From an uncultured Thermodesulfobacteriota bacterium (GTDB taxonomy: Bacteria > Desulfobacterota > B13-G15 > RBG-16-54-18), in contig CAZMFG010000002.1 in assembly GCA_964565525.1 (NCBI GenBank), positions 1 to 42,892 on the forward strand: a stretch of DNA of 42,892 bases, given 5' to 3'. How positions within the stretch are numbered: position 1 is the stretch's first letter; the number at the start of each line of letters is the position of its first letter. The position numbers and the translations under genes were made by a program. Shown in pieces: positions 2,266-18,515 of the stretch. Under the pieces are notes generated by a model. The model ran no database searches. It had not been told where the DNA came from and saw only the letters and a program-made list of their open reading frames with translations.

Positions 2266-2282
2266 AAAATCCGTCATGGCGC

Positions 2283-2316: not shown

Positions 2317-2328
2317 TGGGCATTGTGC

Positions 2329-2368
2329 AAAAAAAAGAGAGACCCCACCGTTCTGGCGGGGTCTCTCT
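2329..2368 (-). terminator. rho-independent terminator of the nfnAB-like operon (minus strand)
   Basis: Perfect 11-bp stem 2336-2346/2358-2368 with an 11-nt loop. On the minus strand it is followed by a run of 8 T (plus-strand A-run 2329-2336). It lies 70 nt downstream of the stop at 2438. Confidence 0.65.
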
Positions 2369-2437
2369 TGATCAGTAAGACCTTACGTGCCTTGGGTCCT
2401 GGCGTTTCCGTCAACTCACAAGGGGAAAGCCGTCTGT

Positions 2438-3856: not shown

Positions 3857-3868
3857 GGTTGTCCCTTT

Positions 3869-4705
3869 CTATTGCCCCTGTTCTTTTTGAAAGAGGTCAT
3901 ACGATCTGCGTTCTTCTTTGAGATAGGCAGCCTGGCGTTTGGTCAATTCGTCGAAGTCGACCTCGTGTCCGTCGAATTCCGGGCCATCGACACAGCAGAA
4001 TCGCGTCTTTCCACCCACCGAGACCCGGCAGGCGCCGCACATCCCCGTGGCGTCCACCATGATGGCGTTGAGGCTCACCAAGGTCTTTACACCGTACGGC
4101 TGGGTGGTCTTACAGACGAATTTCATCATGGGGACCGGCCCAATACCCACCACCAGCTTGACGTCCTTTTTCGCATCGAGCAGGTCCTTGAGGGCATCGG
4201 TGACAAATCCGTGTCTTCCATAGGAGCCGTCGTCGGTGGTAATCAGGAGTTCATCGCTCGCGTTCTTCATATAATCCTCCATGATCAGGAGGTCTTTGGT
4301 CCTGGCCCCGATAATGGAAATGACGTGGTTGCCGATATCCTTGAGGCCCTTGGTGATGGGGTATAACACGGCGATCCCCGTTCCGCCTCCCACGCAAATG
4401 ACCGTGCCCAGTTTCTCCAAGTGGGTCGGCCTTCCCAGGGGGCCGATGATATCGAGGATGGTGCCTCCTACCTGAAAGGTGCGCAGCATGGCCGTCGTTT
4501 TCCCCACTACCTGGAAGATGATATCGATGGTTCCCCCCTCAGGATCGATGCCGGCCATGGTGAGAGGTATCCTCTCCCCCGTCTCATTTGGCCTGAGCAC
4601 CACAAACTGCCCTGGTTGGGCCTTTGCGGCGATCAGGGGGGCCTCGATCTTGAAGTGACAAACGGTATTTCCCGCCATTTCTCGTTTTTCCACTATCTTA
4701 AACAA
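3869..4705 (-). CDS. nfnA: PyrK/SudB/NfnA-family FAD/NAD-binding iron-sulfur protein (probable Nfn subunit A)
   Basis: 278 aa. The TTG start at 4705 is preceded by GGAGGG at 6-nt spacing. It has a ferredoxin-reductase-like fold and a C-terminal [2Fe-2S] motif GMCGACRV...FCCVDGPEF. Confidence 0.8.
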   Translation of the reverse strand: MFKIVEKREMAGNTVCHFKIEAPLIAAKAQPGQFVVLRPNETGERIPLTMAGIDPEGGTIDIIFQVVGKTTAMLRTFQVGGTILDIIGPLGRPTHLEKLGTVICVGGGTGIAVLYPITKGLKDIGNHVISIIGARTKDLLIMEDYMKNASDELLITTDDGSYGRHGFVTDALKDLLDAKKDVKLVVGIGPVPMMKFVCKTTQPYGVKTLVSLNAIMVDATGMCGACRVSVGGKTRFCCVDGPEFDGHEVDFDELTKRQAAYLKEERRSYDLFQKEQGQ

Positions 4706-4738
4706 GGTTCTCCCTCCCTTTGCCTTTGATTTGTTTTG

Positions 4739-4752
4739 TGTGAACTATCACA
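4739..4752. promoter_or_regulatory. perfect palindrome TGTGA-N4-TCACA upstream of nfnA (operator-like site, regulator unknown)
   Basis: tgtgaactatcaca is a perfect 5-4-5 inverted repeat lying 34-47 nt upstream of the nfnA TTG start. The wider 18-mer ttgtgtgaactatcacaa (4736-4753) has TTGTG...CACAA ends. Confidence 0.25.
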
Positions 4753-4791
4753 AACCTCTCGCTCTGTCAAGTTTCACTCGAACCAACGAGA

Positions 4792-4898
4792 TGCGCACTT
4801 TTTTGCAATATTAAGGAGGTTGCACTCTTTTGATATCATGGCTCATATTAAGGAGGTGCACACTTTTTTGAAATATCAAGGAGGTGCACAATCTTCTG
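4792..4898. repeat. degenerate tandem direct repeat (3.5 units of 28-37 nt), each unit ending in AAGGAGG on the plus strand (CCTCCTT on the minus strand)
   Basis: Units: TGCGCACTTTTTTGCAATATTAAGGAGG (4792-4819), TTGCACTCTTTTGATATCATGGCTCATATTAAGGAGG (4820-4856), TGCACACTTTTTTGAAATATCAAGGAGG (4857-4884) and the partial unit TGCACAATCTTCTG (4885-4898). Units 1 and 3 are identical at 25 of 28 positions. Confidence 0.6.
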
Positions 4899-5453
4899 CC
4901 ATAATTGCCGTTTTCCCTCTCCTGTGTGGGCGGAGAAGGGGACGAGCGCCTCCGGCATGATGGAAAGGGCTTCGCTTGTTTGCTGCAGGACCTTGAAAAT
5001 CTTGTTTTTTGAAAGCTTGTCGATTTTGGTCATGGTGATTATCGCAGGCATGGCGAGGGTCTTCAACCACGCGATGAGTGAGAGGTCCAAGGGTGTGGGA
5101 CCTATCCGGGCGTCGATGATAATAACTACCCCACAGAGGGTTTTTCTGTTTTGACAGTATTGCTCTATGAGGGGGCTCCATTGTCTGCGCACTTGGTGGG
5201 GGACCTTCGCATAGCCGTATCCGGGTAGATCCACCAGGCACACCGCTTGATTGACCAGATAGAAATTGATGGACTGTGTTTTTCCAGGGGAAGAGCTGGT
5301 TCGAGCCAGGCCCTTGCGGTTTACCAGGGTGTTGATAAGGGATGATTTTCCCACATTGGACCTCCCGGCAAAGGCCACCTCCGGATAATTGCCTGGTGGA
5401 TATTCATTTTTGGGATAGACACTTTTGAGGAATTCGGCGCTTGTGATTTTCAT
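4848..5453 (-). CDS. engB: ribosome biogenesis GTP-binding protein EngB/YsxC/YihA
   Basis: 201 aa with G1 GRSNVGKSSLIN, G3 DLPGYGYA and G4 TKIDK. The last ~11 codons (LLDISKKCAPP) are read from the tandem repeat at 4848-4884. Confidence 0.85.
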   Translation of the reverse strand: MKITSAEFLKSVYPKNEYPPGNYPEVAFAGRSNVGKSSLINTLVNRKGLARTSSSPGKTQSINFYLVNQAVCLVDLPGYGYAKVPHQVRRQWSPLIEQYCQNRKTLCGVVIIIDARIGPTPLDLSLIAWLKTLAMPAIITMTKIDKLSKNKIFKVLQQTSEALSIMPEALVPFSAHTGEGKRQLWQKIVHLLDISKKCAPP

Positions 5454-5799: not shown

Positions 5800-6963
5800 A
5801 TGATACCCCTTAAAAACATCAGGAGGATTTTTGCCAAGGCCTCTCAGCAGCCTGCCTATGCCTTACGAGCGGCCCGAATGCGGTTCTTATCCTCCTTGAG
5901 CTATCGCCTTCTCGATGGGAGGAGCGCCCCCCCTGAGACCATCTCCCTGCTGCTTACCTATCAATGTAATCTGCATTGCAAGATGTGCGGGCAGTGGGGG
6001 GAGCGGGGGAGCTTAAAAGATCTCCCCTCTGCCGTCACGAGGAGATATCTGGAGCTTCCGTTGATTGAGAGCCTTATCGAAGAAGTGAAGTCCTTTCACC
6101 CCACCATGACCCTTTTTGGTGGGGAGCCCCTGCTCCACCCACAATGGGGTGAGGTCGTCAAACTGATCAAGGGGGCCGGACTTCGCTGCAACATGATCAG
6201 CAACGGCATCCTGCTCAAGAAGAAGGCCGAGGAGGCGGTGCAACTGGGACTGGATGAGATCATCTTCTCCCTGGATGGTCCTGCCGGGGTGCACGATGCC
6301 ATCCGGGGGGGGAAGGGGGTCTTCCGCAGGGCTTTGGAGGGTTTCCAGCACCTCCAGACAGTGAAGGAGAGATATGGCAAAAAGAGGCCCGCGGTGAACG
6401 TCAACACGGTCATCTGGGAGGAGAACCACACGATGTTGGGTGATATCGTTGAGGAGGCGGCCCGGTTCGGGGCCCAGACCATCACCTTTCATCACCTCAT
6501 CTTCCTCGACCAGGCGGCCTTCAGGGAGACAGAGGCCATCACACAGGCGGCCCTCGCCTGCAATTCACCTGATTGGGGAGGGTTCGTCAGAGACGAGCTC
6601 CCTGGGATAGACCCGGAGCACATCATCGAGCAGAGGCGCACGATTGAACGGGGGAGGAACGCAATACCGGCCTTTTTTTATCCCAACTTCACCGATGAGG
6701 AGATCAGGGCGTACTATAGTTCTTTTGATTTTCTTCCCACCTCGTATAAGCGGAGGTGTCTGAGTCCTTGGATGGTGGCCTATGTGCTGCCGGATGGGAC
6801 AGTCAAGCCCTGCCTCAGCCTGGGGTATGTGATGGGAAACCTGCAAGAAGCCGGTTTTCAGGAGATATGGAACGGAGATCGGGCAATGCGGTTTCGCCGT
6901 CTCCTCAAAGAGAGGGGTTATTTTCCTGTCTGTCCCCGGTGCACGGAGTTTTGTAGGTTTTAA
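5800..6963 (+). CDS. radical SAM/SPASM-domain protein (rSAM-1)
   Basis: 387 aa with the CX3CX2C motif in LLLTYQCNLHCKMCGQWG and a GGEPLL SAM-binding segment. The Cys-rich C-terminus (RRCLSPW...VKPCLS...FPVCPRCTEFC) is typical of SPASM/twitch auxiliary cluster domains. Confidence 0.8.
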   Translation: MIPLKNIRRIFAKASQQPAYALRAARMRFLSSLSYRLLDGRSAPPETISLLLTYQCNLHCKMCGQWGERGSLKDLPSAVTRRYLELPLIESLIEEVKSFHPTMTLFGGEPLLHPQWGEVVKLIKGAGLRCNMISNGILLKKKAEEAVQLGLDEIIFSLDGPAGVHDAIRGGKGVFRRALEGFQHLQTVKERYGKKRPAVNVNTVIWEENHTMLGDIVEEAARFGAQTITFHHLIFLDQAAFRETEAITQAALACNSPDWGGFVRDELPGIDPEHIIEQRRTIERGRNAIPAFFYPNFTDEEIRAYYSSFDFLPTSYKRRCLSPWMVAYVLPDGTVKPCLSLGYVMGNLQEAGFQEIWNGDRAMRFRRLLKERGYFPVCPRCTEFCRF

Positions 6964-7041
6964 CGGTGGTCTCGAAGTTGAGTGGTTGTTGCGTGTATGA
7001 GCTTGTCTATCGCCGATTCCACCTTACGGTGCAGTAAAAAT

Positions 7042-7203
7042 CTAGGAAGGACGAATAAGGGAACAATTACGCCAACCCTGTCGGCAATGGTTGCCAGCTG
7101 GGCCATCCATGTGCTGTTGCTTACACACCTGGAGCACTGCCTCCTCCGGCCTCCCTTTGACCAACACTACCAACTTGGGCTTTGTCCAGACCTTGGTTTT
7201 CAT
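7042..7203 (-). CDS. RiPP precursor peptide A1, 53 aa: MKTKVWTKPKLVVLVKGRPEEAVLQVCKQQHMDGPAGNHCRQGWRNCSLIRPS
   Basis: Translated by hand (ATG = rc of cat at 7201-7203; TAG = rc of cta at 7042-7044). The SD GGAGG lies 9 nt upstream. The 28-aa N-terminus is 26/28 identical to the second copy, and almost all nucleotide differences are synonymous in this frame. It was not in the ORF track (under 60 aa). Confidence 0.7.
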   Translation of the reverse strand: MKTKVWTKPKLVVLVKGRPEEAVLQVCKQQHMDGPAGNHCRQGWRNCSLIRPS

Positions 7204-7293
7204 CTTTTAGTGCCTCCGTGTTTTTAAGGCCTTAATCGCAACTTGTACGCCATCCAAACTATTACTTTATATCTGCATCAGATTACATGTTAC

Positions 7294-7302
7294 AGTATAT
7301 CA
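7294..7302 (-). promoter_or_regulatory. candidate extended -10 promoter element (TGaTATACT) for precursor A1
   Basis: The minus strand reads gatgTGATATACT. The identical 13-mer is conserved upstream of precursor A2 (9982-9994). It lies about 90 nt upstream of the ATG. Confidence 0.35.
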
Positions 7303-7463
7303 CATCTTTGTCATAGGGGGTAAGCAGTTTTTTGGTCATGGATGTTTACAGCAGTAACCCCCCTGCTAAAAAGCTTATGGCGGCTATCACTATATGGTAT
7401 ATATATGTGTCTGATCTTGCGTTCCTCAAAACGGTATTGTGCAGTACCGTCCGGCTACAGTGC

Positions 7464-8600
7464 TCATCCGTTCTGTCTGGGCATTAAGAGGGACAATAAA
7501 ATATCTTTTACGTCCTCGGTTTTATGTGGACGATACAGTTTGTCGGCCCAGTGTAACCGATTCATCAGCTCTTGACCTACCTCATGTCCTAACAATTGTT
7601 CCTTGTATGTCGAGAAAGAAAAATCTTTGTCCTTGAGCGCATGCATGATTGAGTTGGCTGCCACGTGACCGTACCCTAAGCTAAAGGATATCCCTTCACC
7701 CCACAAGGGATCAATTCCCGCGGCATCACCTACCAAGAGCACCCTGTTGGCTGAAAATATTGATGAGGGATGAAACCACCGTAGCTGACAGCCCTCAACC
7801 TGACTTTGATCTAGTGAAATACCCCGTGTGGCTAAAAACTCCCCAAGGATATTCCTGAGGAGAGGGATTTCCTTCCGAGAGGTGGAGAAACCACCGACGC
7901 CTATGTTCAGCCATGCTTGACCATGGAGTACCACCGGGAAGGACCAGGCATAGCCTCGAATCCCATGCCGGAATGCACACGAGAAGTCTATTTTTGCTTC
8001 CAACCTTCTTTGATCAGAAAGGTTAAAACTGTCGGCGCGCGTCATAAAACGCAGCGTCATACACGTGTTCCTTGGCCCCCGTATCCCTGCGTTTCTGCAC
8101 AGCATTCTGCGTATGATGCTTTGCGCACCATCGGCACCTACTAGGACGCGGGTAGTAAGGCTTCGCTTGGGAGTTTGTACGGCAACTGCTTCATCACGGT
8201 AAGAAAAGGAGGTCACCGGCTCGTTCTGAACAACTGAGATGCCCAGATCCAGTGCCATGTGAACTAACGCCTCATCGAATTCTTCTCGTATTACCGTCCG
8301 TAATCCGCCAATATCAAAGCAATATTCTACATAGTTATCATAATCAAAGACGAAGCACGTTCTTTTAAGCGCTAAGGAGGTTATAGTCATTGTGATGCCA
8401 AGACGCTGTAACCAGTAATCAGCATATACACTAATTCCGCCCCCACAGATCTTCTTTCGGGGGTGGGTTTTCTTCTCCAGGACTATCAGTCGATTTTTCA
8501 TTGGCGGCAGGAGCTTGCTCAGGTGTATGGCCGTCGAGATACCGGCAGGTCCTGAACCCACTACAATGACGTCATATTCAGTCTCTCTTGATCTGCCCAT
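7464..8600 (-). CDS. FAD-dependent oxidoreductase, geranylgeranyl reductase family
   Basis: 378 aa with the FAD motif YDVIVVGSGPAGISTA. The HPRKKICGGGIS and LLVGDAAGIDPLWGEGISFSLGYG segments match the pattern I associate with GGR/ChlP/BchP-type prenyl reductases. Confidence 0.75.
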   Translation of the reverse strand: MGRSRETEYDVIVVGSGPAGISTAIHLSKLLPPMKNRLIVLEKKTHPRKKICGGGISVYADYWLQRLGITMTITSLALKRTCFVFDYDNYVEYCFDIGGLRTVIREEFDEALVHMALDLGISVVQNEPVTSFSYRDEAVAVQTPKRSLTTRVLVGADGAQSIIRRMLCRNAGIRGPRNTCMTLRFMTRADSFNLSDQRRLEAKIDFSCAFRHGIRGYAWSFPVVLHGQAWLNIGVGGFSTSRKEIPLLRNILGEFLATRGISLDQSQVEGCQLRWFHPSSIFSANRVLLVGDAAGIDPLWGEGISFSLGYGHVAANSIMHALKDKDFSFSTYKEQLLGHEVGQELMNRLHWADKLYRPHKTEDVKDILLSLLMPRQNG

Positions 8601-8660
8601 AATTTAGTTCACCGTTTTGAAGATAGACGCTCCAAGAAAATGGGGTGCTTTGTGGCCTTT

Positions 8661-9530
8661 CTAGGCCCTGTATGTTAAAGCGTATTGCAGGCCGATATGC
8701 TGTATGTCCTTTGAGGATATTTCATCTTCGATAAGGGAGAGGTTGACAGAGACAAAAGCAGTCTTGTATGACTGGCTCAGAATATAATTTAAGGTTTGCA
8801 CGTGGCTGTAAGCTAGGCTGAGCCGGCGGTTGTCCAGGAGGCGAATAAATCTGGTAGGGCTTCGCGGATGAAAATAAAATACACGCCCTCCATTACCCTG
8901 AAAGGAGATGTGCAAAAGGTTGCATTCCTTAATTAATTCCTGTGCGGCATCTCGAAGTTTGAGCTTGGCCATGAGTGTAGGACTATCGAGGTCCCGGCGA
9001 TCAAGGCAAGGATATATTTCTACGCCGGTTCTCCCGTCAAAATACAAATCAATCCCAAATACAAATTCCTCATGGACCAGGTAATCGCGGATGCCTTCAA
9101 GGGGAGGGTGTAAAGAGATGACCTGATCTACCTTTTCAGGGTATTCCCTGACCATGAGATAACACTTGACCTTCGAATCACTCATGTCCGCTTTATAATC
9201 CAGACCTACGCCGATCGCTATGACCCTTAATACATCGAGGTCATTGTTGACTATTTGACCCAGAATGTCACGGTTCAACAATACGTTTTTACACCCTGCG
9301 ATCTTGTTCAAGAGATCATATATTGCATGAAGGCCGCTTTGAATATCGCTTTGCTCATACCCAAACCTGAGCCTCGAGGCATGGGTGCCTTCGCAGGAGA
9401 TCTTGACTGAGCATTCCAACAGAGAACAAGGGGTTGTGGATAGTACTTCCTCAAAGAGTCGAAGAAATGAATGCTCTTTTAACCCGAACCCCTTCTTGTG
9501 GAAAGTATACACCTGAATTAATGGATTCAT
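8661..9530 (-). CDS. hypothetical protein with ABBA-fold prenyltransferase-like strand motifs (function is inferred)
   Basis: 289-aa ORF of clear coding quality. It has recurrent short beta-strand-like motifs with aromatic or basic residues: RLRFGYE, VIAIGVGLDY, KVKCYLMV, FVFGIDLYFD, GVEIYPCL, GRVFYFHP, FVSVNLSL and IGLQYAL. These are reminiscent of NphB/CloQ or cyanobactin LynF/TruF/PatF-type prenyltransferases. Its size fits that family, and its neighbour is a prenyl-reductase-family gene. Confidence that it is a real CDS is about 0.85; confidence in the function is about 0.35. Confidence 0.5.
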   Translation of the reverse strand: MNPLIQVYTFHKKGFGLKEHSFLRLFEEVLSTTPCSLLECSVKISCEGTHASRLRFGYEQSDIQSGLHAIYDLLNKIAGCKNVLLNRDILGQIVNNDLDVLRVIAIGVGLDYKADMSDSKVKCYLMVREYPEKVDQVISLHPPLEGIRDYLVHEEFVFGIDLYFDGRTGVEIYPCLDRRDLDSPTLMAKLKLRDAAQELIKECNLLHISFQGNGGRVFYFHPRSPTRFIRLLDNRRLSLAYSHVQTLNYILSQSYKTAFVSVNLSLIEDEISSKDIQHIGLQYALTYRA

Positions 9531-9732
9531 ACGCTGATTATCGTTGCCGTTCGATTATGGTGTTTATGACAGTTGAATTTTTTACCAAGGTCACCATGCT
9601 GTCAATTGCGACGTGTATCATGGAGATAGAGAAATGAAGCCTTCATCTAGTGGTATCTAGAGCACGAGATGAGCGGGTTTGTTGCTGAGTTGATGCGCTT
9701 GTCTATTCCAGGTCTCAACTCACGCAAAAAAA

Positions 9733-9894
9733 TCAGGTAGGAATCACCCGTTGACAAGCGGAACTATAGATCGTACAGTTGTTGACATTTGGACCGCTTC
9801 TGCCCGATGTCTTACACACCTGGAGTACTGCTTCCTCCGGCCTACCCTTAAACAATACTATCAACTTCGGTTTTGTCCAGACTTTGGTCTTCAT
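9733..9894 (-). CDS. RiPP precursor peptide A2, 53 aa: MKTKVWTKPKLIVLFKGRPEEAVLQVCKTSGRSGPNVNNCTIYSSACQRVIPT
   Basis: Translated by hand (ATG = rc of cat at 9892-9894; TGA = rc of tca at 9733-9735). The SD GGAGGG lies 7 nt upstream. It has the same length as A1, the same leader, and Cys at the same positions (27, 40, 47). It was not in the ORF track. Confidence 0.7.
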   Translation of the reverse strand: MKTKVWTKPKLIVLFKGRPEEAVLQVCKTSGRSGPNVNNCTIYSSACQRVIPT

Positions 9895-9981
9895 TTTTAC
9901 GCCCTCCACGTTTTTAACGTTATAAATGCCACAAATGCGCCATCAGAACTCTTATGTATAGCTGCACTGATTAACATATAG

Positions 9982-9990
9982 AGTATATCA
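9982..9990 (-). promoter_or_regulatory. candidate extended -10 promoter element (TGaTATACT) for precursor A2
   Basis: The minus strand reads gatgTGATATACT, identical to the element upstream of A1, and lies about 90 nt upstream of the ATG. Confidence 0.35.
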
Positions 9991-10078
9991 CATCCTCCTC
10001 TCCGACATAAGCAATTCTTTTTCACGGCGCCAAGACTGTTTGAGGTCTCATGGTATCCCTTTTAATCATAACTCCACG

Positions 10079-11221
10079 TTAGAGTTCCAAAGGCAGTAAA
10101 GGGGCTCTCGTTGTCTTAAGGGCTTTAGCCCTCGCGTGGGCAACCTGGCAGAAATAGGTTACCGGTGCATCCAATTCCCCGGTCTCAAGCGAGGCATGGG
10201 CAGGGCACCACATACAGAGGTTGATCAGGGGGCATACTTGACACGTCTCTAGAAAATCGGATCTCTCCGATCGCATAGCCCGTACCTGGGGGACAAAGTT
10301 CCGCCAGGCATCGGTGAGGGTTCCTTGTTTCAGGTCATAGACACAATCGGGGTGCCAGAGGGATGGGCAGAGCCGGAAGAGGCCGTCATAGCTGAGGCTG
10401 AAACTTGCGGTCCCCGCACCGCACCGCACGAGATGGTTCGAGGTAGTATGCGATAGCTGAGGAACGATTAAGGTATCGCACTCTTTTTCCAGGGCCTGAA
10501 ACCGCTCAGGGTCCGATTGCTCCAGGGCCACGATCTCTTCGGGAGAGAGCCTTTCGGCCTTTATCTCCGCATTTCTTGTCGGGTCCCCGTCATATCTCAG
10601 ATGTAAAAAGGGGTCAAAGCGGAAGCAGTCTTTTACTCTCTCTCTGCAGAAGCGGGCAATCGCCAGCTGTTCGTGGAGATTGGTGCGAAGGGCCATGGCC
10701 TTGAGGCGTACGTTAAGGCCGTTTCCGAGGAGTAGATCGAGCCCTCGACGAAAGGCTGCAAAGGAGCCTGCCTTGCGAGTAACCCTCTCATAGGATTCTT
10801 TGCTGACTCCATAGACCGAAACCTCGATATCCCTCGGTGGATATTCCTTGAATAATTTGATATGCGCTTTTGTTATCAATGTGGCATTGGTAAAGACCGA
10901 GATCAGAAGCCCCTTTTTTTTGAGTGAGAGATAGATATCAAAAAAATCCTCTCGCAGGAGGGGTTCACCTCCGGTGATGAGGCACCACAAGGCGCCAAGG
11001 GATACGGCCTCATTTACAATCTCTTTTATATCCTCACATGAGAGTTCCCTTTTTTTGACCTCCTTATCCCCAGCCGGAAGATTGATGTAACAGTGACGAC
11101 AGTGGTTGTTGCACCGGGCGGTGATCTCCAGGTCAAAAGAGATCAGCCCCCTTCTTTTTCTCATCTTTTCCCAGAGGGGGAGATCGTGTAAGTCGGCGGA
11201 TGAAACATAGGATTCACGCAC
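10079..11221 (-). CDS. radical SAM/SPASM-domain peptide-modifying enzyme (rSAM-2)
   Basis: 380 aa with CX3CX2C in EITARCNNHCRHCYINLP and a GGEPLL segment. It has a C-terminal SPASM-like Cys array (RCGAG...LCPS...CVYD...CQVCPLINLCMWCPAH...FCQ). It is a paralogue of rSAM-3, and its start overlaps the peptidase stop by 8 nt. Confidence 0.85.
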   Translation of the reverse strand: MRESYVSSADLHDLPLWEKMRKRRGLISFDLEITARCNNHCRHCYINLPAGDKEVKKRELSCEDIKEIVNEAVSLGALWCLITGGEPLLREDFFDIYLSLKKKGLLISVFTNATLITKAHIKLFKEYPPRDIEVSVYGVSKESYERVTRKAGSFAAFRRGLDLLLGNGLNVRLKAMALRTNLHEQLAIARFCRERVKDCFRFDPFLHLRYDGDPTRNAEIKAERLSPEEIVALEQSDPERFQALEKECDTLIVPQLSHTTSNHLVRCGAGTASFSLSYDGLFRLCPSLWHPDCVYDLKQGTLTDAWRNFVPQVRAMRSERSDFLETCQVCPLINLCMWCPAHASLETGELDAPVTYFCQVAHARAKALKTTRAPLLPLEL

Positions 11222-11774
11222 CGGGCCGCCTCCTTATTATTATGAAGCGGGCAAACCTCCAGATGGGGCCTAGCAAGGGTAAGAGCCTCCAACGGGTCAA
11301 GAAGGCTATGATAAAACGATCTGGGCCGAGGCCGAAAGGGGGCTCCTCCCCGTTTCTCTCTACTTTGATAACACGCCCGAGGATGTTTGCCTTGGCGATA
11401 AACCCATCAGCCTCTGGGATATTATCCCCTTTGGTGAGGTAAGCATCCGCCCTTTTTCCGACTACCCGGTGGATGATGAGCTTGCAGGTACTCGGATGGG
11501 TGAAGACCACCACATCACCGAAACGGGGGTCAGCTCCCTGCACAGGGGCAATAGTGAGGACATCGCCATCCTTGATAAAGGGGGACATGCTAAAACCCTT
11601 GCACCGAAACCTGAAGGACGCCCCCTTGTCAAGCACGCCCCTCATGAGTTCCTCAAGGTGTTGGCTGTAAAGAGATAACTCCTCCCTCTTCTTGACAAAG
11701 AGGGCTGGCTTAACTTGCATGTCAGGTGAGGTGACCATTAAAGCAGGTTTTATATCACTTCTTTGAGGCTTCAA
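11214..11774 (-). CDS. S24/S26-family serine peptidase (signal peptidase I / SipW-like motifs), candidate leader peptidase
   Basis: 186 aa with a KGFSMSPFIKDGDVL box (Ser nucleophile), a KLIIHRVVGK box (His/Lys general base) and a YLTKGDNIPEADG box. The C-terminal segment FIIAFLTRWRLLPLLGPIW is hydrophobic. It overlaps the PqqD gene by 20 nt. Confidence 0.7.
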   Translation of the reverse strand: MKPQRSDIKPALMVTSPDMQVKPALFVKKREELSLYSQHLEELMRGVLDKGASFRFRCKGFSMSPFIKDGDVLTIAPVQGADPRFGDVVVFTHPSTCKLIIHRVVGKRADAYLTKGDNIPEADGFIAKANILGRVIKVERNGEEPPFGLGPDRFIIAFLTRWRLLPLLGPIWRFARFIIIRRRPGA

Positions 11775-12066
11775 CGATCATCTTCCTCTTGAGGAGTTCT
11801 TTTGCAAGGCCGATCACATCCCGCTCGATCTCGCCGTCCGGTGCCTCATACTCCGTAGCGAGTTCCTCAGCCACCGCCTTCAAGCTCTTTGTGCCGTCCA
11901 GTTTTTCCCACATGGCCCTGCCAGTCTCATTTAGGGTAAAGAGTTCGTCCTCCATATCCCCCATGCCGGCAACAAGGGGGACGATGATGAGTTCTCCCTC
12001 AATCTCCCTGCATACCAGGTCCTCCGATGGGACGTAGGCGGCGTCAAATTTGACCTTTGAGTCCAT
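11755..12066 (-). CDS. PqqD-family peptide chaperone (RiPP recognition element protein)
   Basis: 103 aa. The pattern ...VCREIEGELIIVPL...FTLNETGRAMWEKLDGTKSLKAVAEELATEYEAP...ERDVIGLAKELLKRKMI is typical of stand-alone PqqD/RRE proteins. It is flanked by rSAM/SPASM genes. Confidence 0.8.
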   Translation of the reverse strand: MDSKVKFDAAYVPSEDLVCREIEGELIIVPLVAGMGDMEDELFTLNETGRAMWEKLDGTKSLKAVAEELATEYEAPDGEIERDVIGLAKELLKRKMIVEASKK

Positions 12067-13288
12067 TACAGACCTCCTTTGTGTGGCGAGTGAAGTGAGT
12101 TGTGGCGATAAAAATTTGTATCCTTTCTTTCCAGTTCCTTATCTGCCAGGCCTGCTCGCCTTCTTCAAGCAGCCCCAAGACCCGTGCCTGCGCATGGGCG
12201 ACCTCGCAGAGGTAGTCAACCGGTGTGTCCAAGGTCCCGTGCTCCATCCACGACCAGGCCGGGCACTGTTCGCAGAGGCCCTTCAGAAAGCAGTTGGCAC
12301 AGCGGGTGAGGTAATCACGGTTTTTGGCTTTCCTCTGCCTTATTCTTGGAAAGAAATTCGTCATGGCATCTTTGAGTGAGCCTTTTTTTAGATCATAAAC
12401 GGTGTCTGGGTGCCTCAGCAACATGCATGGTTGGAGATAACCGTAGGCATCGACACATCCGCTCCTCACCCCTGCGCCGCAGGAGAAGATGTTTGTCCCC
12501 GATGGCCTGGCAAACATAGAACAGAATTCCCGCATCTCTTTCAGGTATTTCTCTTGCCTCCTGGAAAAGAATGTTATTACATCCTCAGGTGAGGGTCTGA
12601 GCCCCTTGATAAGGATGTTCTTTTTGCTCGAGTCCCGGCGTGCGCGAAGATCGAGTAAAAGGGTATAAGAGGGTGCTGTGTCCATCCAGGGGATGGTGGA
12701 GGCCCACGATTCAAATTCCTCTATTTCTTCTTTGTTAGGTGGGAGAAGCGCACCCGTGACCACAAACGGGACCTGATATTCTAATAACAAATGCGTACCG
12801 CTCCACGCGGCTTCAAAAGAACCCGCGATTCTAGTGATTGCCTCATAGGAGTTCCTCGTCATTCCGTAGAGGGTAATTTCGATAGGCATGAGGGGTGGGG
12901 TGCGCCCAAATACCTTGGCCAGCGTTGGTGTAATCAATGTGGCGTTGGTGCAGATCGTCACCCGCAGGCCGAGCCTGCGGGCAAAGATATAGAGGTCTTC
13001 AAAATCTTCCCTCAAGAGGGGTTCCCCCCCTGTGAACCTTACTGTGAGACAGCCGAGGGAAAGGGCCTCTTGGAGGATCTCCTGTATCTCTCCTGTCGAC
13101 AGTTCCCTTTTTTGGGCATGACGATCGTCCGCAGGGAGATTTATATAACAGTGGATACAGTTGTTGTTGCAGCGTTCGGTGAGCTCCATGTCGAGTGAGT
13201 TAAGAGCAGTGGTATTCCCCTTCCCGACGGAGACCCCATCGTCCTTTATCTTTACTACAATATAAGAATCTTTAATGACCATCCTCAC
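12044..13288 (-). CDS. radical SAM/SPASM-domain peptide-modifying enzyme (rSAM-3)
   Basis: 414 aa with CX3CX2C in ELTERCNNNCIHCYINLP and a GGEPLL segment. It has a SPASM-like array (SCGAG...CVDAYGYLQPC...RCANCFLKGLCEQCPAW...LCE). The start codon is uncertain (GTG at 13288 or ATG at 13282). Confidence 0.85.
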   Translation of the reverse strand: MRMVIKDSYIVVKIKDDGVSVGKGNTTALNSLDMELTERCNNNCIHCYINLPADDRHAQKRELSTGEIQEILQEALSLGCLTVRFTGGEPLLREDFEDLYIFARRLGLRVTICTNATLITPTLAKVFGRTPPLMPIEITLYGMTRNSYEAITRIAGSFEAAWSGTHLLLEYQVPFVVTGALLPPNKEEIEEFESWASTIPWMDTAPSYTLLLDLRARRDSSKKNILIKGLRPSPEDVITFFSRRQEKYLKEMREFCSMFARPSGTNIFSCGAGVRSGCVDAYGYLQPCMLLRHPDTVYDLKKGSLKDAMTNFFPRIRQRKAKNRDYLTRCANCFLKGLCEQCPAWSWMEHGTLDTPVDYLCEVAHAQARVLGLLEEGEQAWQIRNWKERIQIFIATTHFTRHTKEVCNGLKGQI

Positions 13289-13336
13289 GTGTCCTCAACT
13301 GCAGAATCCAAAGGCCAGGACGTGCTGTTCACTCGA

Positions 13337-14317
13337 TCAAAGGTGCCTTAAGAGGTCTGTTACCCCTCCATCTTTATTAAAGTGAAGGGTATAGCAGGGA
13401 ACTTCATGAGCCATCGTATTCATTAATGCAAGCATTTTCTCCCACCACTCGGCTGTAACCAAAGGTTTTATCAGACAAGCCAAGAGGATCTTGATGATAT
13501 CCTGCGTGTGGTCCATATGGATGAGTTGGTTTCCCCGGTCCTGTTTCAGAAAAAGAATGGCCTTCAACGGCGCGGAATCTGCCGAAACATCAGGAATATC
13601 GCCATGACTCCAGGTCCCGTGGATCTTGAAACCCTCCGGCCACCTTCTTACAATCATCCGGTCATCGCACAGAATCTTTGCCTTACCCTGCATCATCATC
13701 ACCATGGTGGATTTGCCCGCATTGGAATGTCCCACGAAAAGGAGTCCTTTGCCGTCAAGCACTACGCCGCTTGCATGGATATAACACCCTCCCCGTTCAG
13801 CCAGAAGTTGGGCGAGGATGACCTGATCAGTTGGAAAGAGGGTGAGGGAAGGGATATTGCCCCTGTGGAAAGGCCTCTCAGTTTTATTATATATCTTGAC
13901 CGTTCTACGGTTCATTATCGCCAGTTGGTGGATATCCCTTTCTTGAACAAGGCGTGGACGCGTGAAACTTCCCCCATTTGTTTTCTTACGAGATCTTGGA
14001 TAGAGGCGGCGCCATAGTCGTTTAATCGGTTCCCATGTGCCCCCCGGGACAACCACGTAGATCCAGCAAGGCCCCTTTCTGTAAATGACCCACGGGGGCC
14101 TCCGATAGACCTCGTCAGCCATATCCAAGCTGGTCAGAGGTGGTAGGGAGAAGTGGTGCCTGATGGTTATGGTATCCTTTCCAGGTCTATCCACTTCAAA
14201 GAGTCTGAACTTGGGGTGGAAGGTCGTATCGGTGATGGGTAAGTCCGATACCATCTTTATAGTGATACCGGCAATGTGATAATAGCGGCGGTCTAAGACC
14301 CGGGGTTTTTCAGTCAT
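13337..14317 (-). CDS. HPr kinase/phosphorylase-related P-loop kinase (HprK C-terminal-domain-like)
   Basis: 326 aa. The segment IHASGVVLDGKGLLFVGHSNAGKSTMV...ILCDDRMIV matches the HprK catalytic-domain pattern (hG..v..kGvLl.G.SG.GKS....L..DD). Confidence 0.7.
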   Translation of the reverse strand: MTEKPRVLDRRYYHIAGITIKMVSDLPITDTTFHPKFRLFEVDRPGKDTITIRHHFSLPPLTSLDMADEVYRRPPWVIYRKGPCWIYVVVPGGTWEPIKRLWRRLYPRSRKKTNGGSFTRPRLVQERDIHQLAIMNRRTVKIYNKTERPFHRGNIPSLTLFPTDQVILAQLLAERGGCYIHASGVVLDGKGLLFVGHSNAGKSTMVMMMQGKAKILCDDRMIVRRWPEGFKIHGTWSHGDIPDVSADSAPLKAILFLKQDRGNQLIHMDHTQDIIKILLACLIKPLVTAEWWEKMLALMNTMAHEVPCYTLHFNKDGGVTDLLRHL

Positions 14318-14469
14318 CCCTTAATTTTTAGCGGAAGCTTGTAGTTAATGTCTTAAAAATTATGTACTTTTTTGCCATGTTAGCACCTAACGTACCTGAC
14401 CGCAAGGCGCGAAGGATTCAACCAACGCTAGCTGGTTTCCAGCTTCCATAGCCTTCTCGGAAAGCTTGA

Positions 14470-15300
14470 TCACATAAAGGTGTCCCTCAGGAGCTTTATA
14501 CACTTCCACAGCCTATCGCCGATGACGCTGAAGGAAAAACCCTTAGGGAAGAATATCTCCTGTAGGGCTTTTCCTTTATGTTTTGACTGAAAGAGAAAAA
14601 GAAGGTCACCGAAATTTTGATTGAACGTTCCCCCCTTTATTTTTTTCAGAATCCATCGTTCTCCAATGGAGAGATTCCCTTTCCAGGATGGGAAAATATC
14701 CGGGTACAGGAAGCTGAGATAGACAAGGGTGTGCTCAGCACCCATCCGTTTTGCCTCGGCGCGTATCGCTTCATCAGAGAGCTGATAGTATTTTTGTATC
14801 CTGGTCAGATCTTTCCACCCCTTCTCAGATCCGAAAGAGTGGCTCTGGAGGTGGATGACCGTGGAGATAAAGAGGTGCTCCGGGCAAGGGATCTTTATCT
14901 CTAGTGCGTCTAATTGCTTGGTGATGCCTTGTTGAAAGACCTCATCCATAGAGACCGTCAGGCAAGCGTTCGCCAGGGCTGTGCGGATAGGGGTGAGGAA
15001 GGAGGTGTGCAGGTCGAGGGAGAGGCCGTTCCTATAGAAGACCCCCGGTTCCGCCTCCTGCCATTTCAATTCCCGTAAGACCCCTTTGAGCTGTTCCACC
15101 TCCCGTTCCCGGACCATGATGTCCACATCGAGCATCCCCCGATCCCCCAGCTCGGGGTAAACATCTCCCAGAAGGCTTATTCCTCTGAAGAAGATAACCT
15201 CAGGGCCCGTCTTTTGTAGCCGTTCCGTCACCTCCCGCAGGTGGTGGATGAGGATGAGATTCTGGGAGGCCGTTTGGTAAAAGGTGAGTTCCCGCTTCAT
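14470..15300 (-). CDS. nucleotidyltransferase family protein (PF14907/NTP_transf_5-like)
   Basis: The ORF track gives 14470-15351. I prefer the ATG at 15300 (MKRELTFYQ...), which forms an ATGA overlap with the upstream glycosyltransferase stop. Motifs are GMLDVDIMV and LSLDLHTSF. Confidence 0.6.
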   Translation of the reverse strand: MKRELTFYQTASQNLILIHHLREVTERLQKTGPEVIFFRGISLLGDVYPELGDRGMLDVDIMVREREVEQLKGVLRELKWQEAEPGVFYRNGLSLDLHTSFLTPIRTALANACLTVSMDEVFQQGITKQLDALEIKIPCPEHLFISTVIHLQSHSFGSEKGWKDLTRIQKYYQLSDEAIRAEAKRMGAEHTLVYLSFLYPDIFPSWKGNLSIGERWILKKIKGGTFNQNFGDLLFLFQSKHKGKALQEIFFPKGFSFSVIGDRLWKCIKLLRDTFM

Positions 15301-16424
15301 CCGCTTTCCCCTGAGACCTCGTGGTAGAGGTCGATGGTCCTTTGAAGGCACACGTTCCAGTCGAAGAGGGCCTCTGTTCGCTTCCTCCCCTTCGCTCCCA
15401 TCTCCTTCCTCAGTCGGGATGAGTTAAGGAGTGCGATGGCCTCCTGTGCCATCCTCGTTGTATCTCCAGGTCCTACCAGGACGCCCCCGTCACCAACCAC
15501 CTCGGGGAGCCCCCCGACGGCCGTCGCCACGATGGGCTTGGCGGAGGCCATGGCCTCTACCGCGGCCAAGTTGAATCCGTCGTTCAGGGATGGGATGAGC
15601 ATAATATCAAAGGCAGCGATGAGGTCGGGGATGTCCTCTCGATACCCTAAAAAGTGGAAGCCCGAGATGCCCTCGGCCATCTTCAGAAGCCCTTCTTGCA
15701 TCGGACCATCCCCCACCATGACGAAGTGGGCCTTTGGGTAAGCGGCCTTTATTTTTTTGGCAGCCTCCACAAATCGATCAGGCCCTTTTATCTCTTCCAT
15801 TCTCCCCACAAAGCCTACGACAGGTACCTGTTGTGCTATCCCCAACTCAGTTCTCACCTTTTTACCTTCTCCTGGGAAGCGTTGTATATCTATTCCATTG
15901 TAGATGGTAATTACTCTTTTTTCGTCGCCGATCCCCTTATTCAGGTATGCCCTGCGTTCGTCCTCGGAGATGGTGATAATCCGCCCACAGAATCTGGCAG
16001 CCAGACGCTCGAGAAAGACGTAGAGCCGCTCTTTCCCTGTGCCGAAATATCCATAGAATAGATGGCCGTGGGGTGTGTGGATGGTCTTGGTGCGGGTTAT
16101 CCGTCCTGCTATCCTTCCTAAAATCCCTCCCTTGGTGGTGTGGGTGTGGAGGAGCGCCGGCCGCTCTCTGCGGATGAGGGCGCAGATCTCAAAGAAGGAA
16201 AGGAGATCATGCAAGGGGGCGATATCGCGGCGCAGATGGGGGAGGAGGTGATAAGAAATATTGAGCCTCTGAGAGAACCCCCAGGGGTCTTCTTCGGGTT
16301 GCTGAGAAGGGCCGGAGGACATAACGATCTCTATACCCAGTTCCGTGAGTCCTCTGATCAGTTGGAGGAATACCCGGGGTGCGCCGCCCTTATCGAGTCT
16401 CGTTATCAGCTGTAAGACCTTCAC
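15297..16424 (-). CDS. glycosyltransferase family 4 (GT-B, group 1)
   Basis: 375 aa with a DGFNLAAVEAMASAKPIVATAVGGLPEVV (EX7E-type) C-terminal domain. The GTG start overlaps the upstream stop (GTGA). Confidence 0.85.
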   Translation of the reverse strand: MKVLQLITRLDKGGAPRVFLQLIRGLTELGIEIVMSSGPSQQPEEDPWGFSQRLNISYHLLPHLRRDIAPLHDLLSFFEICALIRRERPALLHTHTTKGGILGRIAGRITRTKTIHTPHGHLFYGYFGTGKERLYVFLERLAARFCGRIITISEDERRAYLNKGIGDEKRVITIYNGIDIQRFPGEGKKVRTELGIAQQVPVVGFVGRMEEIKGPDRFVEAAKKIKAAYPKAHFVMVGDGPMQEGLLKMAEGISGFHFLGYREDIPDLIAAFDIMLIPSLNDGFNLAAVEAMASAKPIVATAVGGLPEVVGDGGVLVGPGDTTRMAQEAIALLNSSRLRKEMGAKGRKRTEALFDWNVCLQRTIDLYHEVSGESG

Positions 16425-17470
16425 CCGCCCTTTTCTCTCTTCATCCTGCGGTTGGCAGCGATTTCCAAGATGGTCGCAAAGGAGAGGATGACCAGGGCCT
16501 GCAGGAGGAGGATCCAGAAGTAGTCCGGCGCCATCTTGATCAATAGGGCGTTCATGCCCAAGGCGATGGTCAGGAGGTAGATGGCGAGCACCGTCTTGGT
16601 CTTTGATCCCAAGAGGTAATGAAGCCGGTGGTGGAGGTGGTCCTTCCCCGTGTATTCGATGAGTTCGCGCACGTTATGCACTTCCCTCATAATTATCCTG
16701 CGCACGTTGATATAGGCCATGTCATAGATGACCACGGCAAAGATCAACAGCGGGGCGGCGAGGGAGGGGAGGAGCATTTCCTCCGACCACTCGGCCATGA
16801 TGGCGAGGGAGGCGAGAACGAAACCCAAAAAGTTGCTCCCCGTATCCCCGAGAAAGATACTCGCCCCCTTCTCCCCACGAAAGTTATAGGGGATAAAGCC
16901 GATACAAGTACCGAGGATAAACAGACAAAGAGGTACCATGGAGAACGACCCCATTTGGAGGAAGACGATGGAGAAGAGGCAGGAGAAGATGATGCAGAGA
17001 CCCGCTGCCAATCCGTCCATTCCGTCGATGAAGTTGACGGCATTGGTAATTCCCACCAGCCAGAGGACCGTGAGGGTATAATTGAGGGCATAACCCCACC
17101 AGGCCTTGGGGAAGATGGTAGCGCTCACACCAAAGGAGATGAGGATGCAGGCGGCCACGATCTGGGAAACAAACTTTGTCACGCCAGGCAACTCGTGCGC
17201 GTCGTCTCCGACCTCCACTACAAAGATGAAGCTTGCGGCGATCAGGAGGCCCAAAATCTGTCCCGAGGGTTTGGTGAATACCAGCGCCGATATGATGAAA
17301 GCGGTGAAGATGGCCCACCCCCCGGTCTTGGGGGTGGGGACGGTATGGACCCTGCGTTGTGCGGGGATATCCATAAAACCCCATTTTTTCCCTAACCACC
17401 TTGCCAGTGGGGTGAGGATAAGGGAGAGGAAAACGGGGACGATGAGGGGCGGAAGGAATTCTTCAAGCAT
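16421..17470 (-). CDS. MraY/WecA-family polyprenyl-phosphate N-acetylhexosamine-1-phosphate transferase
   Basis: Multi-TM protein with NAVNFIDGMDGLAAG and VHTVPTPKTGG motifs. I place the start at ATG 17470 (MLEEFLPP...), an 8-nt overlap with the upstream stop. The ORF-track extension to 17644 runs inside the aminotransferase gene. Confidence 0.8.
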   Translation of the reverse strand: MLEEFLPPLIVPVFLSLILTPLARWLGKKWGFMDIPAQRRVHTVPTPKTGGWAIFTAFIISALVFTKPSGQILGLLIAASFIFVVEVGDDAHELPGVTKFVSQIVAACILISFGVSATIFPKAWWGYALNYTLTVLWLVGITNAVNFIDGMDGLAAGLCIIFSCLFSIVFLQMGSFSMVPLCLFILGTCIGFIPYNFRGEKGASIFLGDTGSNFLGFVLASLAIMAEWSEEMLLPSLAAPLLIFAVVIYDMAYINVRRIIMREVHNVRELIEYTGKDHLHHRLHYLLGSKTKTVLAIYLLTIALGMNALLIKMAPDYFWILLLQALVILSFATILEIAANRRMKREKGG

Positions 17471-18515
17471 GTCTATCCTCGACGGCCCTCCTGAAGCAGA
17501 AGGCAATATGTCGCACCTCATCCGCCGTAAGGCGCGGATAGAGGGGGAGGGAAAGGGCCTCTGCATAGACCTTTTCACTCGCCTCGAAGCCGTTGAGGCC
17601 GAGATAACGATGGAGGGGGCAAAAGACGGGACGCTGGGCCTCAATACCTTGGCGATGCAACCGCGCTATGACTTGATCAAGGTCTCCCCCCTTGATTCTT
17701 ACTACATACCGGTAATATATTCCCCCCGGCCGCGGCACGATCACTCCCTCAAGCCCTCTTATGAGTTTGTCGTACAATTGAGCTCGGTCCATTCTTTGTT
17801 CGAGAAAGAAGGGGAGTTTCCCTAACTGTATATTCCCCATCCGTCCCTGCAAGTCGGTCATGCAAAAATTATACCTTACTTTGTAATCATCTTTTTTGTC
17901 ATACTCGCGCAGATCTTTTACCCGTTCCAGGATTTTCTCGTTCCGGGAGGCTACCATCCCTCCCTGGCCGGTGGTGATGACCTTGGTGGCGTAAAAGGAG
18001 AACATGGCGGCTGTGCCCCAAGACCCCGTCATCCTTCCTCCATAGGTTGCCCCCAGGGATTGTGCGCAGTCCTCTATGACGGGTGGACCCAAGGCGAGAA
18101 AATCGTCCATATCTTCTACGGGATGTCCGAACATGTGGGGGATGATAATGGCGGCGGTCTTCTTGGTGAGGGCCTTTTTGGTCGCCGAGATGGAGATGTT
18201 CATATGCCCCTCATCGATGTCCACTATCGTGGGGACAGCGCGGCAATGGTGTACGGCATTGAGGAGGGCGCTGCAGGTAAAGCTGGGGATGATTACCTCA
18301 TCCCCCTCTTTGACCCCGAGGGCCAATAAGGTGAGGTGCAAGGCAGCGGTTCCTGATGCGATAGCTACCGCCCCACTGAGACCCAGGTATGAGGCCATCT
18401 CCCGTTCAAATCCCTCCACCTGTTCACCGGTGGCGATCCACCCAGTGGCGAGGACTTCTTGGAGACCTTCGATCTCCTCTCTCCCCAGGGTGGGCATGGA
18501 ATGGGTTATGTTCAT
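17463..18515 (-). CDS. DegT/DnrJ/EryC1/StrS-family PLP-dependent sugar aminotransferase
   Basis: 350 aa with ...AIASGTAALHL... and FSFYATKVITTGQGGMV (PLP-lysine region). Confidence 0.85.
   Translation of the reverse strand: MNITHSMPTLGREEIEGLQEVLATGWIATGEQVEGFEREMASYLGLSGAVAIASGTAALHLTLLALGVKEGDEVIIPSFTCSALLNAVHHCRAVPTIVDIDEGHMNISISATKKALTKKTAAIIIPHMFGHPVEDMDDFLALGPPVIEDCAQSLGATYGGRMTGSWGTAAMFSFYATKVITTGQGGMVASRNEKILERVKDLREYDKKDDYKVRYNFCMTDLQGRMGNIQLGKLPFFLEQRMDRAQLYDKLIRGLEGVIVPRPGGIYYRYVVRIKGGDLDQVIARLHRQGIEAQRPVFCPLHRYLGLNGFEASEKVYAEALSLPLYPRLTADEVRHIAFCFRRAVEDRHA

Follow-up and report, generated by a model that had tools for sequence, protein, structure and literature searches.

A RiPP-like operon combining an LPP/paeninodin-type tailoring core with paralogous radical SAM enzymes and a candidate peptide prenyltransferase in an uncultured Thermodesulfobacteriota bacterium

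The closest described system to the gene cluster analyzed here is that of the linear polyphosphorylated peptides (LPP) found in Bacillota (Popov et al., Nat Commun 2026, PMC13381572). In lasso peptide systems, HprK-like kinases phosphorylate the C-terminal serine of the precursors, and a nucleotidyltransferase of an "uncharacterised" family is required to add a hexose onto this phosphate (PMC6993621, PMC8498205). Our cluster lies in a stretch of 42,892 nucleotides (nt) from an uncultured Thermodesulfobacteriota bacterium (assembly GCA_964565525.1, contig CAZMFG010000002.1, positions 1 to 42,892); this whole stretch is called the window below. We regard the cluster, with moderate confidence, as an operon for peptides that are made on the ribosome and modified after translation (RiPPs) that belongs to a large undescribed family, joins the LPP/paeninodin tailoring core to paralogous radical S-adenosylmethionine (rSAM)/SPASM maturases, and follows the pathway proposed below. 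The enzymes are of known kinds in a new combination, and one subclade of the family appears to have acquired, in addition, a cyanobactin-type prenyltransferase and a flavoenzyme of the geranylgeranyl reductase (GGR) type.

An earlier note, made from the letters of the sequence, had listed on the minus strand genes for an HprK-like kinase, two rSAM enzymes, a PqqD protein, a peptidase, two small precursors, an ABBA-like protein and a flavoenzyme. The list of open reading frames (ORFs) and profile searches placed every one of these genes at the same coordinates, strand and order. The left flank of the window (8-5453) was read through precomputed Pfam hits on contigs of the same species (L004, L005). 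The arrangement is far beyond chance, as the same order and ORFs similar to the precursors recur where the prenyltransferase is only 49-72% identical. The assignment of the locus to peptide maturation is borne out by the stand-alone RiPP recognition element (RRE), by the pattern of selection on the precursors and by this recurrence.

The two precursors, A1 (7042-7203, minus strand) and A2 (9733-9894, minus strand, counted from the ATG at 9894), are paralogues of 53 amino acids that have in common 26 of 28 leader residues and three cysteines. A1 consists of a leader with a WxxPxL element, a Cys-Lys pair at the junction and a core with two more cysteines and a C-terminal Ser, while A2 ends in Thr. 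Both genes are preceded by a GGAGG ribosome-binding site. The codons of the leader differ by nine synonymous and two non-synonymous changes, those of the core by two synonymous and 19 non-synonymous ones. Since the leader thus appears to be under purifying selection and the core diversified, A1 and A2 are, on this codon evidence, true precursors. Moreover, the 13-mer GATGTGATATACT, which resembles an extended -10 promoter element (TGaTATACT), is found in identical form ∼100 nt 5' of both start codons (7294-7306 and 9982-9994, minus strand), with two matches observed against 0.05 expected. The entire 5' untranslated region and the 3' motif ATAGACAAGC are also common to the two genes, and GATGTGATATACT is found again 5' of A2 homologues in two related loci (L010, L029). 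An NCBIfam scan of five precursors assigned them to no family, the only match being a weak one of a single precursor to the paeninodin leader (E 0.12). At the A2 stop codon (9734-9750, minus strand) there is a terminator-like hairpin followed by a T-run, which could act as an attenuator raising the level of precursor mRNA relative to that of the downstream enzyme genes.

The locus is not an isolated case. In the protein collection there are 90 relatives of the prenyltransferase, and 13 species, represented by one genome each, encode a homologue at least 39% identical to it; all 13 are metagenome-assembled genomes (MAGs) of uncultured Thermodesulfobacteriota, "Deltaproteobacteria" or Desulfobacteraceae. 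The ten MAGs with a prenyltransferase of 52% identity or more (L010-L019) keep the gene order, as do L003, L028 and L029, loci from metagenomes. This comparison reaches as far as each contig extends, and A1/A2-like ORFs occupy equivalent positions down to 49% prenyltransferase identity. The kinase-like protein is much more widespread, with at least 1,270 relatives at E <= 0.001. A kinase-seeded metagenome scan yielded at least 263 loci, 80 of which were fetched. A word-indexed search for precursors gave only nine matches, because small ORFs are rarely called, and it was replaced by a leader hidden Markov model (HMM), applied to six frames of the fetched loci, and an exhaustive search of representative proteins. 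The former found 107 distinct complete precursors in 60 loci, and the latter 1,832 precursor cluster representatives at E <= 0.001 among 1.84 billion representative proteins. The check proposed in the earlier note, whether A1/A2-like ORFs recur beside homologous HprK-like, PqqD and rSAM genes, thus came out positive in ∼60 further loci.

Across the family, the set of genes comprises the kinase, an rSAM enzyme, PqqD, the peptidase, an rSAM enzyme and 1-11 precursors, to which a third paralogous rSAM enzyme, a PF14907 nucleotidyltransferase and an ATP-binding cassette (ABC) exporter are often added. The prenyltransferase and the reductase are limited to a Thermodesulfobacteriota subclade, except for one reductase-like match in L043. 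This family is large and hitherto undescribed, its members being annotated as hypothetical or loosely as "ScmC-like". The leaders follow the rule [K/R]-x-W-x-[K/R]-P-[K/E]-L-x-V-L-x-[K/R]-x-x-P-E-E-x-[V/I]-L-x-x-C-K. Of the 107 precursors from the loci, 105 end in Ser or Thr, as do 122 of 123 in an independent sample of the representative library; with a Ser+Thr frequency of 19% in the cores, the probability of such a pattern by chance is <1e-70. In addition, 84/107 and 110/123 precursors, respectively, have their last cysteine at a distance of exactly six residues from the C-terminus.

Several loci extend this picture. In three of them (L031, L035, L043), 6-11 precursor genes in tandem encode hypervariable cores with four cysteines, and the GGR-like match in L043 is found without a prenyltransferase. 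The same core cassette is encoded by a MAG of Aminicenantaceae (Acidobacteriota; L026, 52-8433), with a three-Cys precursor ending in Ser, and with an ABC exporter and a methyltransferase instead of the prenyltransferase and reductase; therefore, the family crosses phyla. In a Methanosarcinales MAG (L024, 3562-14452), a 26%-identical prenyltransferase homologue lies beside at least six radical-SAM-like stretches, which points to an archaeal counterpart.

The invariant C-terminal Ser/Thr is the strongest clue, and it had been overlooked in the earlier note. The kinase (13337-14317, minus strand) has a P-loop, GHSNAGKST, at residue 196 and a CDD motif at 217-219. Its NCBIfam matches are to ScmC (39 bits), HprK_rel_B (27 bits) and HPr(Ser) kinase (24 bits), and the identical protein on public contigs (L004-L008) carries the new Pfam family PF27840 ScmC. 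With a profile of the kinase family, HPr kinase was the best, albeit weak, sequence match in the PDB (E 0.026), and the modelled structure (mean predicted local distance difference test score, pLDDT, 82) matches phosphoenolpyruvate carboxykinase and HPr kinase/phosphatase, which have one common kinase fold. The nucleotidyltransferase gene (14470-15300, minus strand), whose start overlaps the stop of a glycosyltransferase gene, matches PF14907 at 81.5 bits. Sequence motifs, the modelled fold and the PF14907 score thus agree with the HprK-like and nucleotidyltransferase assignments made earlier. By analogy, an invariant C-terminal Ser/Thr together with an always-encoded kinase and, often, a nucleotidyltransferase would fit the lasso precedent well.

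The PqqD protein (11755-12066, minus strand; PF05402, 55 bits) is a stand-alone RRE. As stand-alone RREs of the lasso type bind the element [Y/W]xxPx[L/V] (PMC13381572), the PqqD protein should bind the WTKPKL segment of the leader. The adjacent gene (11214-11774, minus strand) encodes a homologue of archaeal/SipW-type signal peptidase I, which passes the TIGR02228 cut-off (58.9 bits against 51.85) and carries Ser62, His102 and Asp117. In the LPP system, LppS is an RRE-dependent leader peptidase of the SipW-like type with a Ser-His-Asp triad (PMC13381572); by motif spacing, Ser62 and His102 are 40 residues apart, compared with 39 in LppS. By this analogy, the SipW-like protein is the likely leader peptidase.

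The two rSAM enzymes of the operon, rSAM1 (12044-13288, minus strand), recognized by profile matches, and rSAM2 (10079-11221, minus strand), are paralogues with 41% identity over 349 residues. A CxxxCxxC motif is present in both, as is a C-terminal region rich in cysteine, which in rSAM2 is SPASM-like. Neither scores above the cut-off of any characterised family: the models of the thioether-forming enzymes AlbA, StsB, PapB and CteB gave at best 47-78 bits against 340-850, the matches to PapB, StsB and AlbA being weak and full-length. The best PDB match is a cytosylglucuronate decarboxylase (E 8.5e-9), and the matches to solved structures are too distant for assigning chemistry. The precursors have three cysteines in 9/10 loci with two rSAM paralogues and four cysteines in 19/20 loci with three (Fisher p = 1.4e-7, ignoring phylogeny). 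As judged from these counts, the rule of the family is that the number of cysteines equals that of paralogous rSAM enzymes plus one, that is, the junction "CK" aside, one rSAM paralogue per cysteine. In L001 (6531-7433), and also in L011, L012, L013 and L015, an extra rSAM/SPASM gene for 275-300 amino acids lies between rSAM1 and PqqD; it is not present in the window, where the rSAM1 and PqqD genes overlap.

The protein described earlier as ABBA-like (8661-9530, minus strand) can be placed more precisely, as a peptide prenyltransferase of the cyanobactin type (the PatF/LynF/KgpF/LimF family). It matches PF19156 at 97.7 bits and the LynF/TruF/PatF model TIGR04445 at 119 bits, against a cut-off of 140, and a sequence search of the PDB recovered the solved KgpF, LimF, DciF, PirF, PagF and PatF with E from 7.5e-28 to 5.7e-9. 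The modelled structure (pLDDT 90) gave Foldseek template modelling (TM) scores of 0.84-0.86 to KgpF and LimF, and its ABBA barrel overlaps with F-family structures at TM 0.78-0.86 and 21-25% identity. No homologues of the PatA and PatG proteases are found at the locus, and the hosts are Thermodesulfobacteriota MAGs, not cyanobacteria. More distant homologues (39-44% identity) also lie within clusters of ScmC, rSAM, PqqD and nucleotidyltransferase genes. Among the nearest relatives of known structure, KgpF prenylates Trp, LimF His, DciF Arg, and PirF and PagF Tyr. In the prenyltransferase clade, 17 of 20 cores have Trp or Tyr between Cys2 and Cys3, compared with 36/76 elsewhere (p = 0.0025); because of this enrichment, our best guess for the candidate acceptor is the Trp/Tyr of the Cys2-Cys3 loop. 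The cores of this clade are also strongly cationic, with ∼12% Arg+Lys and ∼2% Asp+Glu, so that a cationic lipopeptide would be expected as the product.

In every related locus of the clade for which DNA was available, the reductase gene (7464-8600 in the window, minus strand) directly follows that of the prenyltransferase. Its product matches TIGR02032 over the full length of the model (1-297 of 297) at 132 bits, under the cut-off of 158.8. It has a GSGPAG motif as well as KICGGG, YAWSFP…GVGG and VGDAAG, which we take to be fingerprints of geranylgeranyl reductases, and the presence of the latter three agrees with the earlier assignment to the GGR family. A dedicated partner of the GGR type suggests a chain of more than one isoprene unit that becomes saturated. 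Our search of the openly searchable literature, which leaves subscription-only papers outside, turned up neither a RiPP with a reduced prenyl group nor peptide prenylation coupled to a reductase.

Upstream of the nucleotidyltransferase gene, five co-directional sugar genes (15297-19803, minus strand) encode WbqC (19120-19803), a PIG-L deacetylase (18512-19123), a DegT aminotransferase (17463-18515), a WecA-like phosphoglycosyltransferase (16421 to about 17470) and a GT4 glycosyltransferase (15297-16424). They run into the nucleotidyltransferase gene through overlapping stop and start codons. In the Desulfobacteraceae versions of the locus (L003, L018, L028), the same block stands right before the kinase gene, while the other flank differs. 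The sugar genes are therefore probably co-transcribed with the cluster, so that the operon would reach upstream to about 19803 rather than to 15300, and they may belong to the peptide pathway; a scan for promoters and terminators gave nothing decisive on the limits of the operon. Further on (20613-42892), there come a divergent gene for an AAA_22+HD_5 protein and then a Wza/Wzc/Wzy/Wzx polysaccharide locus that contains numerous GT4, GT9 and methyltransferase genes. At 27-32 kb the G+C content falls to 35-40%, which suggests a horizontally acquired segment. As stated in the earlier note, the window encodes no lasso cyclase and no exporter: there is no ORF of lasso-cyclase size and no ABC exporter outside five unscanned ORFs of 214-349 amino acids (33019-33663, 36668-37624, 38798-39847, 39831-40511, 41829-42575).

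The pathway that we propose from the gene content is as follows. The RRE would bind the WxxPxL leader of A1 and A2, and each paralogous rSAM enzyme would install one Cys-dependent crosslink, most likely a thioether by analogy with sactipeptides and ranthipeptides, on one of the two cysteines after the junction "CK". The kinase would phosphorylate the invariant C-terminal Ser/Thr, and the nucleotidyltransferase would elaborate the phosphate, possibly with products of the co-transcribed sugar genes. The prenyltransferase would add an isoprenoid, probably to the Trp/Tyr that usually stands between Cys2 and Cys3, the reductase would saturate it, and the SipW-like peptidase would take off the leader. 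Such a pathway should yield a small lipopeptide that is cationic, crosslinked and phospho(glyco)sylated and is produced in the setting of a polysaccharide locus. The phosphorylation, proteolysis and lipidation anticipated in the earlier note are all plausible, given the enzymes encoded. We would only tentatively go further and propose a new RiPP class, the membrane-anchored phosphoglycolipopeptide of a polysaccharide operon, which would be crosslinked by rSAM enzymes, phosphorylated and elaborated at the C-terminal Ser/Thr and supplied with a saturated prenyl chain.

Several observations weigh against the proposed pathway. LppK phosphorylates Ser3 of the core, not the C-terminus, and did not accept Thr, and no activity of LppN could be detected in the same study (PMC13381572); in the family described here, Thr ends 15-20% of the precursors. 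Three of the 20 cores of the prenyltransferase clade lack Trp/Tyr in the Cys2-Cys3 loop. This clade encodes no exporter, while other clades of the family have ABC exporters. The PqqD protein of the window is only weakly similar to the PDB entries 9x90_B (E 0.004) and 9x8z_B (E 0.09), PqqD-family lasso chaperones released in 2026; 9x8z_B and 9x90_B are presumably LppB and PbaB1, the RREs of the LPP study. The best profile matches of the rSAM enzymes include, besides peptide maturases, the cofactor enzymes AhbD, NirJ and MoaA. Finally, in sactipeptide and ranthipeptide systems one rSAM enzyme usually makes several links, so that one enzyme per cysteine would be unusual.

The matches to AhbD, NirJ and MoaA, as well as the surrounding sugar genes, could be taken to mean that the cluster is a coincidental juxtaposition, in which the prenyltransferase and reductase belong to the metabolism of lipids or quinones, the rSAM enzymes modify cofactors or sugars, and the small ORFs are not substrates; the GGR family is, indeed, normally lipid-directed. 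Yet the prenyltransferase falls into the peptide-specific F family by both sequence and structure, a stand-alone RRE is present, the gene order is kept to 49% identity, and the precursors recur, bear their characteristic pattern of selection and have a number of cysteines that tracks that of the rSAM genes. We consider such a coincidence highly improbable. A different question is posed by the convergent rSAM/SPASM gene (5800-6963, plus strand), which could encode a third maturase of the pathway, with one rSAM enzyme per conserved cysteine. It ends 79 bp from A1, it adjoins the cluster in the window as well as in L001, L010, L012-L015 and L029, and the extra in-operon rSAM/SPASM protein of the relatives weakly resembles its product (28% identity). 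However, this gene is absent from the three Desulfobacteraceae versions and from every compared locus without a prenyltransferase. Its product belongs to a different rSAM family, with 25% identity to rSAM1 over 104 residues. In the closest clade it is 77-87% identical, that is, more conserved than the genes of the cluster, and it is always followed by the housekeeping GTPase gene EngB, which suggests a conserved flank. As two enzymes already account for the count rule, a role as third maturase is rather unlikely, and the convergent gene is probably outside the pathway. The idea of three cysteines served by three rSAM enzymes, put forward in the earlier note, did not survive this comparison: we rejected it, as the third gene is missing in relatives and the number of cysteines is that of the rSAM paralogues plus one.

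The two remaining alternatives concern the fate of the phosphate and the nature of the product. Phosphorylation might serve as activation, with the C-terminal Ser/Thr eliminated to dehydroalanine or dehydrobutyrine and the cysteine six residues upstream added to it, which would give a C-terminal (methyl)lanthionine-type ring and leave the other cysteines to the rSAM enzymes. Class II-IV lanthipeptide synthetases dehydrate their substrates via phosphorylation, the C-x5-[S/T]-COOH spacing is fixed in the 84/107 and 110/123 precursors given above, and Ser and Thr would be interchangeable, as they are in lanthipeptides. We regard this as distinctly unlikely, since neither a lyase nor a cyclase domain was detected in profile scans, the phosphates of paeninodin, pseudomycoidin and LPP are all retained, and the count rule already covers the two cysteines after the junction. 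Alternatively, the product might be a phosphoglycolipopeptide of the envelope or exopolysaccharide (EPS), held in the membrane by its saturated prenyl anchor and glycosylated on its phosphate, with the product or its glycan handled by Wzx/Wzy/Wza/Wzc. The stop/start overlaps that tie the sugar genes to the nucleotidyltransferase gene speak for this, and so does the retention of the sugar block before the kinase gene at 49-57% prenyltransferase identity while the other flank differs. The clade moreover lacks the exporter of other clades and adjoins the Wza/Wzc/Wzy/Wzx locus, and LPP and paeninodin clusters are likewise found within capsule loci and are induced together with an EPS gene (PMC13381572). 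On the other hand, the synteny could be inherited rather than functional, and hypervariable cores and multi-copy precursors, as seen in sister clades, are more typical of competition molecules; an envelope anchor is therefore doubtful to us. Compared with these alternatives, we prefer the operon reading given at the outset, with crosslinks that are most likely thioethers, an elaborated C-terminal phosphate and a prenylated core.

If this reading holds, the locus would provide the HprK-like/PqqD/rSAM cassettes, a very large family of orphans, with candidate substrates and simple sequence rules. It would also link the phosphorylation toolkit of LPP and paeninodin, known only since 2026, to the peptide chemistry of radical SAM enzymes as it occurs in anaerobic Thermodesulfobacteriota and in other phyla. 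The pair of prenyltransferase and reductase predicts a saturated isoprenoid on a ribosomal peptide. On the more tentative view of a new RiPP class, this would be the first ribosomal peptide with an isoprenoid saturated like those of archaeal lipids, and it would be a membrane-anchored compound rather than a diffusible antibiotic. The joining with sugar genes at the operon level bears on the question of why such peptide clusters sit in capsule and exopolysaccharide loci.

Among known systems, the cyanobactin F-family (KgpF, LimF, DciF, PirF, PagF) has the same ABBA barrel as the prenyltransferase, which here occurs in MAGs of the sulfate-reducer type and is paired with rSAM chemistry and a GGR-type reductase. 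In sactipeptides and ranthipeptides, similarly to what we propose, rSAM enzymes with auxiliary-cluster domains act together with an RRE on Cys-containing cores. Here, by contrast, the RRE is a separate protein and the number of paralogous enzymes scales with that of the cysteines, and the kinase, nucleotidyltransferase, prenyltransferase and reductase are extra.

The SynChlorMet (SCM) cassettes of NCBIfam/TIGRFAMs, comprised of the HprK-like ScmC, the PqqD relative ScmD and the two rSAM/SPASM proteins ScmE and ScmF, are similar in composition. The earlier note had mentioned a catalogued cassette of a kinase, PqqD and a nucleotidyltransferase with no assigned substrate peptide. SynChlorMet is the best fit to this description, and its models are the best or near-best named matches of the window proteins. 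The locus is, nevertheless, not a member. We rejected membership as the scores against the ScmC, ScmD, ScmE and ScmF cut-offs are 39.4/125, 19.4/100, 78.8/400 and 77.1/400, all far under the threshold, while a genuine ScmE in L020 scores 611. Genuine SCM cassettes (L020-L022) adjoin a PatF-like prenyltransferase, a PF14907 nucleotidyltransferase and a peptidase, but their candidate precursors have a YEPPxL..GG leader and Cys-rich repeats and do not follow the C-terminal Ser/Thr rule. In L020 (1-17000), and also in L021 and L022, the prenyltransferase homologue (39-44% identity) stands between genuine SynChlorMet cassettes, and the neighbourhood in L020 includes a peptidase-nucleotidyltransferase fusion, an ABC exporter and a protein of 345 amino acids that weakly matches the C-domain of squalene-hopene cyclase.

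The paeninodin and pseudomycoidin systems (PadeK/PsmK, PsmN) have in common with the window a WxxP leader and a PqqD-type RRE, and in them the HprK-like kinase targets the C-terminal Ser and the nucleotidyltransferase is needed for glycosylation of the phosphate. Lasso systems of the paeninodin type have, however, a cyclase and a B2 cysteine protease, in place of which the window has rSAM enzymes and a serine signal-peptidase homologue. A lasso peptide was therefore rejected as the product: ORF and profile scans found neither an asparagine-synthetase-like cyclase nor a B2 protease in the cluster or the window.

The LPP system comes closest, and the statement of the earlier note that the locus matches no known RiPP class is to be corrected in that this closely related class has now been described (PMC13381572). 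There are clear differences. LPP clusters have no radical SAM enzyme, prenyltransferase or reductase, while the operon in the window has two rSAM enzymes, a prenyltransferase and a reductase. The same openly searchable literature gave no account of the present system or of an LPP relative with rSAM enzymes, and nothing on SynChlorMet. The leader of LPP precursors is YxxPxVLxHQxIxFETxxS and that of the window WxxPxLxVLxxGxPEEAVLxxCK; LPP cores are long, linear and phosphorylated on Ser3, whereas those of the window contain cysteines and end in Ser/Thr. An MsbA-like exporter is part of the LPP core set, and none is found in the window outside the five unscanned ORFs of the polysaccharide locus. 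Moreover, LPP have been reported as restricted to Bacillota, while the host of the window belongs to Thermodesulfobacteriota. On the other hand, the [Y/W]xxPx[L/V] part of the leader is common to both, and so is the core of an archaeal/SipW-type signal peptidase, an RRE, an HprK-like kinase and a nucleotidyltransferase. The kinase and the "uncharacterised" nucleoside triphosphate transferase by which LPP clusters are recognized are both encoded in the window, its PF14907 protein being the presumed counterpart of LppN. In total, the window has four of the five LPP functions, and, like LPP clusters, it sets them in a polysaccharide locus.

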